Of a DNA stretch of 64,000 bases, positions 40,954 to 42,669 are shown one piece after another. Positions within the stretch are counted from its first letter, which is position 1, and every line of letters starts with the position of its first letter. Made by a program: the position numbers and the translations under genes. This DNA is from a virus (lineage: Duplodnaviria; Heunggongvirae; Uroviricota; Caudoviricetes), in IMG/VR virus record IMGVR_UViG_2609460332_000008. One strand, written 5' to 3'. Under the pieces are notes generated by a model that had not been told where the DNA came from, searched no databases, and saw nothing but the letters and a program-made list of their open reading frames with translations.

Positions 40954-41247
40954 TTATTGTGAGCAATACACACGCGCTTCCAGCGGAGTATAAATGCCTA
41001 AAGTAATAAAACCGAGCAATCCATTTACGAATGTTTGCTGGGTTTCTGTTTTAACAACATTTTCTGCACCACCACAAATTTTTGCTGCATCGACAGTTTT
41101 CTTCTGCCCAATTCCCGAAACGAAGAAATGATGGGTGATGGTTTCCTTTGGTGTTACTGCTGTAGGTTTGTTTCCAACAGTAAACGTCTGTTGAGCACAT
41201 CCTGTAATAAGCATTGCCAGAGCGGCAGAAAACAACATTTTTTTCAT
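40954..41247 (-). CDS. bor: Bor outer-membrane lipoprotein (serum-resistance lysogenic conversion protein)
   Basis: MKKMLFSAALAMLITGCAQQTFTV...LEARVYCSQ closely matches remembered lambda Bor; start placed at the internal MKKM Met. Confidence 0.85.
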   Translation of the reverse strand: MKKMLFSAALAMLITGCAQQTFTVGNKPTAVTPKETITHHFFVSGIGQKKTVDAAKICGGAENVVKTETQQTFVNGLLGFITLGIYTPLEARVYCSQ

Positions 41248-41727
41248 CTTATTATCCTGCATTGTTAAAAACGGCAGAATCCTATGTGACAACAATTAAA
41301 CGATAGTTAAATGGATTGATGAAAATTAAAACTACACAGGTGGGCTCAGACTATTGGAGGAAGTTGGGGACACTCAGAATCCTGTGGAATGAAATAAACC
41401 GGTCTATCCGTCCATTACCCTTTTAGCTGCGCTGTATCGTCGCCGTATTCCCGCATTAACCATGACCGTAGCCCGACGGGGAATTCCTTCTGCGTGAGTG
41501 TGCGGGAATAATTAAAAACGATGCACACCGGGTTTTTACCGCGTTAATGATTCGCGGGTTTATCCCGGTGCGATGGTGGAAGAAACAGGAAGCTGTATTA
41601 CAGAAAGTGCTACTACTGTATCCCGATGCGATGTATGTAATGTGAGTCAGATAATGGCACAGGATGTGGTGATGTGGCAGTCTGGAACACAGGATATATT
41701 GTCAGAATAAGACCCGTAGGAATAAAA

Positions 41728-42054
41728 ATGAAAAGACGCCTTTTACTACTTTTTCTGTTATCTGTCCTGGCAGTGGGATGCTCGCAGCAAAAAGCTGATG
41801 AGCCCCGGCAATTAGTGACGGTGTATCCACGATATCCGGAATATGCTGCAGCAAATTATATCAAGGGGCTGGTTGAGGTTAAGTTCGATATTGGTGCTGA
41901 TGGGACTGTGACACGGATCGTTTTTCTCCGCTCAGAGCCTCATAATTTGTTTCGTGATGAAGTGGTGAAGGCCATGGCGAAATGGCGATTTGAAAAGAAT
42001 CGCCCCTGTCAGGGAGTGAAGAGACAATTTATCTTTACGCCGTCACGTCCTTGA
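41728..42054 (+). CDS. Lipoprotein with TonB C-terminal-like domain
   Basis: Signal peptide with lipobox LAVGC; motif VYPRYPEYAAANYIKGLVEVKFDIGADGTVTRIVFLRSEP...WRF typical of the TonB C-terminal domain. Confidence 0.55.
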   Translation: MKRRLLLLFLLSVLAVGCSQQKADEPRQLVTVYPRYPEYAAANYIKGLVEVKFDIGADGTVTRIVFLRSEPHNLFRDEVVKAMAKWRFEKNRPCQGVKRQFIFTPSRP

Positions 42055-42176
42055 TGCTTCCAGGTAGAGAGGGGCTGGAAGCAGGAGAAAAATGAAAGAG
42101 CCAGCGGTTATATTTTTGTCATGGCTGACGAGGAATGATGGAAGAAGGCGTTGTATGCCACACAACGCCTCACTGT

Positions 42177-42356
42177 TCATTTCTTCTTTTTCTCTGGTGG
42201 AACCCGATGAATAAGAGTTGCACTGGTTTCCGATGAGATGGCGATATACTCGGGCAAAGTATGCTGGCAGTTTTCCAACTGGTCAAAAATACCTGCTCTC
42301 GTCTGTTGCAATGCCTGCAGCATGCGGCGGCAATGCGCCTTGCTTTTACTAACCAT
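42177..42356 (-). CDS. Small hypothetical protein (about 59 aa)
   Basis: ORF upstream of cos; start placed at internal Met MVSKSKAHC; weak call. Confidence 0.3.
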   Translation of the reverse strand: MVSKSKAHCRRMLQALQQTRAGIFDQLENCQHTLPEYIAISSETSATLIHRVPPEKKKK

Positions 42357-42417
42357 CTTTCCTTCCTCTATCAGTCGCTGCGTGAACTCATCATGGAATA
42401 CCAGGTAAATGCGGATG

Positions 42418-42669
42418 TTATCGGTTTTGGCTACGCAGCATAGTACAAAACGGACAGGTGCATCCCGGGACGGGGGAGGCGTCACATGTCCCTGTGATGG
42501 TTGTTCCGGGTAATGTACTGTGTGGGGCATAAAAATGTCCGATAATTTTACTTTCTACCGCAGTTAGTTGATTCGTTGGTCCTGGTAGCACATTGGGCGA
42601 GGATTTAAATGCCAGGCAACTGAAGGATGATGTCGCAAGGGAGATAGCGAGAATATTTCTGATTTTCAT
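42418..42669 (-). CDS. Small secreted cysteine-rich protein (about 83 aa)
   Basis: Signal peptide MKIRNILAISLATSSFSCLA; C-terminal GTCDASPVPGCTCPFC cysteine cluster. Confidence 0.4.
   Translation of the reverse strand: MKIRNILAISLATSSFSCLAFKSSPNVLPGPTNQLTAVESKIIGHFYAPHSTLPGTTITGTCDASPVPGCTCPFCTMLRSQNR

Follow-up and report, generated by a model that had tools for sequence, protein, structure and literature searches.

The right end of a phage-21-like lambdoid prophage, contained in a 64,000-nucleotide (nt) stretch of viral DNA (Duplodnaviria; Heunggongvirae; Uroviricota; Caudoviricetes; IMG/VR record IMGVR_UViG_2609460332_000008; hereafter the window), carries at positions 41728-42054 on the + strand a gene for a 108-amino-acid (aa) protein in which a lipoprotein signal is followed by a TonB C-terminal domain. 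TonB-dependent transporters of the outer membrane, and group B colicins that enter through the envelope, present Ton boxes to TonB, and we propose that the phage lipoprotein may act as a decoy that competes with TonB for these boxes. The genes beside it, one for a secreted cysteine-rich peptide and one for the lipoprotein Bor, are separate cargo. We assign this reading a probability of roughly 0.4.

An earlier note on this DNA, made from the letters alone, had suggested the TonB C-terminal domain, and profile searches bore the suggestion out. Pfam family PF03544 (TonB_C) matched at 49.2 bits against a gathering score of 24.6 (E = 7e-13), and TIGR01352 matched at 47.4 bits against a cutoff of 27.1. 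The domain aligned without gaps to residues 151 to 230 of E. coli TonB in structures 1u07, 1xx3, 2gsk (the BtuB complex), and 2grx (the FhuA complex), with an E value of about 1e-14 and 32 of 80 residues identical (40%). Core residues of TonB were kept at the positions equivalent to Y163-P164 (the YP motif), G174, F180, F202, W213, Y215 (present as F), and F230, and the β3 strand that pairs with Ton boxes was present, with FIF in place of ILF. As in TonB's C-terminal domain (approximately residues 150 to 239), the order of secondary structure elements was α-β-β-α-β, the predicted elements being H36-43, E47-55, E61-70, H77-91, and E98-103 in an AlphaFold model of low confidence (predicted local distance difference test score [pLDDT], 57; shallow alignment). 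The best Foldseek matches to that model in the PDB were TonB C-terminal domains, at TM-scores of only 0.44 to 0.58, for which the low confidence of the model is the reason. The C terminus is 4 residues shorter than that of TonB and ends in a proline-rich tail, TPSRP. Full-length TonB is a different matter, as the equivalog models NF008080 to NF008084 scored 45 to 69 bits versus cutoffs of 265 to 448.

What precedes the domain is the layout of a lipoprotein: a signal (MKRRLLLLFLLSVLAVG/C18, the slash marking the cleavage site), a tether of approximately 7 residues that begins with serine at position +2 (SQQKADE), and then the domain itself. The lipobox, LAVG/C18, fits the PROSITE PS51257-type pattern, and the same layout is shared by two diverged variants, one 72% identical (in Stx1a phages, JLK-2012, and Lys8385Vzw) and the other 41% identical (in Klebsiella phage ST13-OXA48phi12.4). 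All three lipoboxes (AVGC/S in the window, VMGC/T and LLGC/S in the variants) fit the PROSITE-type pattern and are followed by serine or threonine at +2, and none of them matches the strictest four-residue lipobox consensus. The lipoprotein character proposed in the earlier note is thus backed by a signal preserved in all three sequence variants. In E. coli, a non-aspartate residue such as serine at +2 directs a lipoprotein to the outer membrane by Lol sorting. Because serine occupies +2 and approximately 7 residues separate Cys18 from the domain, the protein is predicted to be an outer-membrane lipoprotein with its domain at the periplasmic face. Neither the N-terminal membrane helix that anchors TonB in the inner membrane nor the proline-rich spacer is present, the N terminus being a cleavable lipoprotein signal, and because the protein has no anchor to ExbB/ExbD, energy transduction is impossible for it.

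The pattern of substitution indicates that the gene is maintained. Between the window and the JLK-2012 copy (73% DNA identity), 20, 17, and 52 differences fell at codon positions 1, 2, and 3, respectively, synonymous sites were near saturation, and the ratio of nonsynonymous to synonymous substitution rates (dN/dS) was 0.12. We conclude that, as judged from codon changes, purifying selection acts on the TonB-domain gene and that it is no "partial tonB" in decay.

The proposed mechanism would run as follows. After lipidation and Lol sorting, the domain would be held at the outer membrane, on its periplasmic face. There, it would bind Ton boxes, either those of TonB-dependent transporters or those of group B colicins entering the cell, through addition of a strand to their β-sheet, the way TonB itself binds. 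Uncoupled from ExbBD, the domain would be unable to pull, so that it would be a competitor of TonB and no substitute for it. TonB-dependent uptake would then fall, and with it sensitivity to TonB-dependent phages, colicins, and microcins. In TonB, the Ton box pairs in parallel with strand β3, and the Q160L substitution suppresses Ton-box mutants (review PMC11658791). The position equivalent to Q160 varies in the phage family (Y, L, and H), and the 72% variant has leucine there, the same residue as in the suppressor.

The short outer-membrane tether, the intact TonB fold, and the precedent of exported TonB fragments make a decoy plausible by analogy. Exported periplasmic fragments of TonB are said, in the title of a 2001 paper by Howard, Herrmann, Stratilo, and Braun (J Bacteriol 183:5885), to inhibit transport through FecA and FhuA; these were reportedly soluble constructs, made from E. 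coli TonB in the laboratory and overexpressed. Like them, the phage protein would place a TonB C-terminal region in the periplasm without an energy-coupling anchor; unlike them, it is natural, diverged, and, by prediction, anchored by lipid. A second likeness is to T5 Llp and the Cor proteins of phi80 and N15, which are also small phage-encoded outer-membrane lipoproteins, and Llp blocks FhuA, a TonB-dependent transporter. The action of Llp and Cor is specific to FhuA, and the protection they give is against FhuA-using phages, whereas a Ton-box binder would be generic and would block the energy-dependent step rather than receptor recognition. No sequence relation to exclusion families such as Llp/Cor was found with Pfam (which returned only TonB_C), PHROGs, or PADLOC. 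If it exists, the decoy would be a new variant of the receptor-blocking exclusion lipoproteins, one that acts generically at Ton boxes. The sensitivity of E. coli to TonB-dependent phages, to colicins and microcins, and to conjugates of siderophores with antibiotics would then be set by a common prophage gene, which would affect the iron uptake of carrier strains as well. Phage therapy, competition by bacteriocins in the gut, and the use of "Trojan horse" antibiotics would all be concerned.

Several observations weigh against a decoy. The positions of TonB R158, Q160, and R166 are occupied by T31, Y33, and Y39, respectively, and Y39 is fixed in all phage variants. R158 and R166 reportedly contact BtuB and FhuA in the complex structures of 2006, and all three residues are counted among the contacts with the Ton box or FhuA. 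Because these positions are replaced and Y39 is fixed, the binding specificity of the phage domain may differ from that of TonB, and the structural model is of low confidence (pLDDT of 57). Upstream of the gene, the + strand showed no sigma-70-like promoter, and for that reason the protein may appear only along with the late gene products, at a stage where exclusion is of little use. A constitutive inhibitor of TonB should be costly to siderophore-dependent extraintestinal pathogenic E. coli (ExPEC), yet the gene is carried often, including by UTI89 and ATCC 25922. The native receptor of phage 21 is LamB, so that the gene would have no function in self-exclusion and any exclusion would strike other phages. 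Finally, the known defense-system models of PADLOC gave no match in the cluster, and a literature search found no functional study of this phage TonB-domain protein.

One alternative that draws on the same substitutions is that the domain has been repurposed to bind peptidoglycan, TonB itself (as a mixed dimer), or another periplasmic partner and serves the lysogen as an envelope or virulence factor, as Bor does, with no competition at Ton boxes. TonB C-terminal domains dimerize in crystals (1ihr and 1u07), and binding to peptidoglycan has been reported for them. Three positions of contact with the Ton box or FhuA differ from TonB in the phage domain, with tyrosine for R166 throughout the family; in addition, the gene accompanies bor/iss and is frequent among ExPEC strains, to which a loss of iron uptake would be harmful. 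The tether of approximately 7 residues, however, would keep the domain close to the outer-membrane leaflet, a long way from the inner-membrane side and probably without reaching the peptidoglycan, and the gene lies on the late-operon strand with no promoter of its own detected, unlike bor, which lies on the opposite strand. We consider repurposing rather unlikely. The same late strand and missing promoter favor another proposal, namely, an accessory of lysis or progeny release that alters transporters or envelope links, or shields progeny from debris, and has no role in the lysogen. In all three phage backbones compared, the gene is directly downstream of the lysis cassette, and PHROG 1267, which matches the protein end to end (E = 5e-43), is labeled "Rz-like spanin." That label rests on no test and is apparently wrong. 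A complete Rz/Rz1 pair is already encoded by the prophage. The TonB-domain protein itself is globular, and its gene lies 800 nt further downstream; it lacks both the short proline-rich form that marks an o-spanin and the C-terminal hydrophobic membrane helix of a unimolecular spanin, and spanin identity was rejected. Moreover, the gap between lysis genes and cos is the usual site of unrelated accessory genes such as bor. A lysis accessory seems to us improbable.

There remains the proposal that function is absent from the TonB-like open reading frame (ORF), from the cysteine-rich ORF, or from both, these being fragments in decay or ORFs that arose by chance. Older annotations of the first as "partial tonB-like membrane protein" or "TonB fragment" point this way, and the region is near-identical in most carriers, so that conservation within E. 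coli says little by itself. The proposal is contradicted by dN/dS values of 0.12 for the TonB-domain gene and 0.10 to 0.17 for the peptide gene, with synonymous sites near saturation, and by the preservation of the lipobox at 41% identity in the Klebsiella phage. It also fails to account for the peptide gene, the homology of which stops at the ORF borders in Salmonella and Klebsiella and which persists alone adjoining icd in Citrobacter koseri. We give decay almost no credence. Competition at Ton boxes by an outer-membrane lipoprotein remains our preferred reading of the gene.

The gene is widespread. It was present in 1,617 of 5,426 complete E. coli genomes (approximately 30%), as the close variant in 1,225 and as the 73% variant in 392, and its carriers include O157:H7 strains in addition to the two named above. 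Its position was constant in the three backbones (phage 21; JLK-2012 and Stx1a phages; the Klebsiella phage), after the lysis cassette, before the terminase genes, and on the late-operon strand. The annotation-level facts are already public: phage 21 has an annotated protein, CPT_21_73, identical to this one, and the phage 21 genome announcement lists the gene without further comment. As for regulatory signals, the best Fur-box match upstream of the gene reached 11 of 19 positions, which we do not count as a Fur box. The best sigma-70-like match in the region lies at 41855-41882 on the - strand (TTAACC, a 16-nt spacer, and TATAAT with an upstream TG; 10 of 12 positions); it is inside the TonB-domain gene, antisense to it and facing bor, and is a match to consensus only. 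A possible origin here of svsR, a small RNA of the related NC-SV prophage, was rejected, as svsR lies in cI.

The features of the interval and its borders, by position in the window, are as follows.

40461-40922 and 40681-40863: Rz/Rz1 pair, complete
40954-41247, - strand: bor/iss, outer-membrane lipoprotein Bor, 97 aa, lipobox ITGC/A (Pfam PF06291, Lambda_Bor)
41429-41571, + strand: conserved structured RNA between bor and the TonB-domain gene, in two hairpin domains (41433-41525 and 41526-41571), supported by covariation
41728-42054, + strand: TonB C-terminal-domain lipoprotein, 108 aa (Pfam TonB_C; TIGR01352)
42177-42356, - strand: possible gene of 59 aa, downstream of the peptide gene on the same strand, intact in locus L024
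42261-42443, + strand: ORF of 60 aa (RefSeq/PGAP WP_000881610.1; CPT_21_75 in phage 21), probably not a gene
42418-42669, - strand: secreted cysteine peptide, 83 aa (mature form approximately 63 aa), Sec signal CLA/FK, supported by homologues and dN/dS
42763-42787, unstranded: Fur-box-like palindrome immediately left of cosQ, approximately 100 to 118 nt upstream of the peptide ATG
42788-42794, + strand: cosQ, GGGTCCT, read from the sequence and in agreement with the lambda right end and the phage 21 cosQ annotation
42818-42829, + strand: cosN cohesive end, GGGCGGCGACCT, read from the sequence and in agreement with the lambda right end
43007: start of Nu1

The prophage is integrated at icd. E. 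coli 4/1-1 carries an identical stretch adjoining icd, in which the gene order is integrase, cI-like repressor, Q, holin, endolysin, Rz, iss, "TonB family protein," "hypothetical protein," nohD (Nu1), and large terminase subunit. Many E. coli chromosomes were 100% identical to the window across 40900-43050, and phage 21 proteins were 100% identical to both the TonB-domain protein and the product of the cysteine-rich ORF. The cluster had been placed between the lysis genes and cos, and beside cos, by the earlier note; it does lie there, and every coordinate given for it was accurate. We conclude that the interval is an island of accessory genes ("morons") at the right end of a phage-21-type prophage chromosome. 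Rfam reported no family in 40900-43050.

The cysteine-rich ORF at 42418-42669 is a gene. A Sec signal and four clustered cysteines, both anticipated by the earlier note, are present, and what that account understated was the conservation of the gene as a family. A database search returned 22 relatives at 55 to 77% identity in Salmonella enterica subspecies salamae and indica, Citrobacter, Klebsiella, and E. coli; a genome scan with a narrower alignment returned 4 species-level loci and added subspecies arizonae and diarizonae and Buttiauxella; and an index-free search recovered more distant members at 37 to 56% identity, with ALA/F cleavage sites and no cysteine in the signal peptide. The C-terminal motif C-x7-C-x-C-x2-C (GTCDASPVPGCTCPFCTMLRS) is invariant in the family, the invariant columns being the cleavage site A/F, C62, G69, C70, C72, and C75. 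DNA homology to the Salmonella and Klebsiella loci was confined to 42677-42416, that is, from 8 nt before the ATG to within 2 nt of the stop codon, and dN/dS was 0.10 to 0.17. Two frameshifted variants, P0038 and P0041, were treated as sequencing errors: every gene is fragmented at the P0041 locus (L023), and the same was assumed for the similar P0038. A lipoprotein was considered, since Cys18 fits a loose lipobox pattern, and was rejected; because the distant members have no cysteine in the signal peptide, we take the peptide to be a substrate of signal peptidase I. We conclude from these comparisons that the ORF is a real, conserved gene under purifying selection and that it belongs to a narrow enterobacterial family. 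No match to the family was found in Pfam, NCBIfam, PHROG, or PADLOC.

The genomic settings of the homologues offer a lead on function. The Salmonella copy is flanked by pliG and a bor homologue, and the island that contains it also encodes an omptin, an NEL effector, and a SPATE autotransporter. In subspecies salamae (L008:5454-6252), the peptide gene is downstream of pliG at a distance of 96 nt, and pliG itself has a Zur box that agrees at 14 of 15 positions (TGTTATAGTATAACA); pliG reportedly belongs to the Zur regulon (Gilston and colleagues, 2014). The homologue of Buttiauxella noackiae (L016:1336-1617) has a Zur-box core of its own, TGTTATTATATAACA, also 14 of 15, located 36 nt upstream. 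Matches at that level to the core consensus used, TGTTATAATATAACA, were absent from 400 kb of shuffled sequence. On a Klebsiella plasmid, the peptide gene lies near cobW and a Fur-family gene. Because homologues in other genera sit in Zur-regulated contexts, we think it most likely that the mature peptide, with its four cysteines, binds metal (zinc?) in the periplasm or is disulfide knotted, as far as genome context can tell. The comparison with PliG, a small Zur-regulated periplasmic protein, is one of setting, as the two share no sequence similarity. Two points count against these readings: no site in the window matched the Zur box at 12 or more of 15 positions, and the structural model of the peptide (pLDDT, 49) was unusable. 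A role in zinc limitation, possibly through binding of metal by the four cysteines, is thus suggested as a lead, with the window copy itself having no Zur box.

The peptide gene also occurs apart from its neighbors. Other E. coli prophages likewise have it next to cos and oriented away from Nu1, and have neither bor nor the TonB-domain gene. In Citrobacter koseri (L021:5001-5300), it adjoins icd, which is the attachment site of phage 21, and the 10-kb locus contains no further phage genes; this copy is probably cargo left behind after loss of a prophage.

Between the peptide gene and cos is the palindrome at 42763-42787, which was the best match to the Fur consensus in the whole window, at 15 of 19 positions; the next site outside the overlapping pair matched 13. 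In its 7-1-7 form, it agrees at 13 of 15 positions. Lambda has a perfect 7-1-7 palindrome at the same place (L022:2153-2167; TGATAATCATTATCA, of the form TGATAAT-N-ATTATCA), and three other prophages (L018 to L020) have a perfect TGATAATAATTATCA there, which in L018 is approximately 120 to 135 nt upstream of the peptide gene. Judged by its sequence and position, the palindrome may be a Fur-controlled leftward promoter for cargo adjacent to cos, or it may be part of the cos region itself. In lambda, the place held here by the cysteine peptide gene is occupied by an unannotated 64-aa ORF close to the right end (48109-48303, - strand; L022:1810-2004), presumably YlcI/YnfO-like (DUF3950).

A broader reading would combine these elements. 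The phage would carry a general Ton-box trap that makes its host less sensitive to TonB-dependent phages, group B colicins, and siderophore-microcins. Iron-responsive leftward transcription from the Fur-like palindrome, passing through the peptide gene and continuing antisense to the gene of the TonB domain, might limit the cost of the trap; just upstream, the late transcript contains a new structured RNA. We think this combination unlikely.

That RNA, at 41429-41571, is of interest apart from any such scheme. In a three-way alignment, the block was better conserved between the window and JLK-2012 than was the adjacent TonB-domain ORF (73% DNA identity), and it was 83% identical to lambda 46865-46974. 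It occurred in 432 phage records, including lambda, 933W, Stx phages, and a Salmonella phage, and 44 of the 45 matches listed were on the query strand. In an alignment of 11 sequences, 95% of cells were paired, compared with 24 to 63% in slid controls, and changes on both sides of a pair numbered 6 versus 1.7 in shuffles, a level reached in 1 of 500 shuffles. The minimum free energy was -56.9 kcal/mol (z = -2.7) on the + strand and -48.5 kcal/mol (z = -1.9) on the - strand. G-U pairs are many on the + strand, and because of their frequency and the better fold energy we take that strand, which is the strand of the late transcript, to be the RNA strand. No match to the element was found in Rfam at an E value of 1 or less. 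These results point to an undescribed structured RNA common to hundreds of lambdoid and Stx phages.

The two small ORFs that overlap in antisense between the TonB-domain and peptide genes differ in their support when compared with locus L024 (92 to 94% DNA identity). The annotated 60-aa ORF on the + strand acquires two in-frame stops there and has 7 nonsynonymous versus 2 synonymous changes, a record that makes it probably not a gene. RefSeq and phage 21 records nonetheless include it and leave the peptide gene on the opposite strand unannotated, and the annotation can be corrected accordingly: a conserved, secreted four-cysteine peptide was missed in favor of a probably spurious antisense ORF. 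The 59-aa ORF on the - strand is intact in L024, with 4 synonymous and 3 nonsynonymous changes, and a strong Shine-Dalgarno sequence, GAGGAAGGAAAG, directly precedes its ATG. It matches PHROG 4843, the label of which gives no function, and it had no match in Pfam. Its relatives are four only, three at 90 to 100% identity and one at 62%, so that it is a possible gene with almost no diverged homologues. The earlier note had mentioned it as a weak ORF; it is present, and the description undersells it, as it is the better supported of the overlapping pair. Three further ORFs were rejected. A 117-aa extended form of the same frame (42177-42530, - strand) gains a stop in L024, a 40-aa ORF (42092-42214, + strand) is partly deleted there, and a 45-aa ORF (41573-41710, + strand; CPT_21_72 in phage 21) is poorly conserved relative to JLK-2012, has indels across its length, and is probably not a gene.

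The bor gene stands where the earlier note had put it, with both a Lambda_Bor profile match (E = 1e-30; 106 bits against a cutoff of 25) and a lipoprotein signal. Bor is a known serum-resistance lipoprotein, and compared with Bor/Iss of lambda, the copy in the window is a standard member of the family in its standard place and orientation, with no notable difference. RefSeq names it iss (WP_001298464.1). Its true ATG is at 41247, and a TTG-initiated extension of 113 aa reaches 41295. Relative to locus L024, bor has 8 synonymous and 3 nonsynonymous codon changes.

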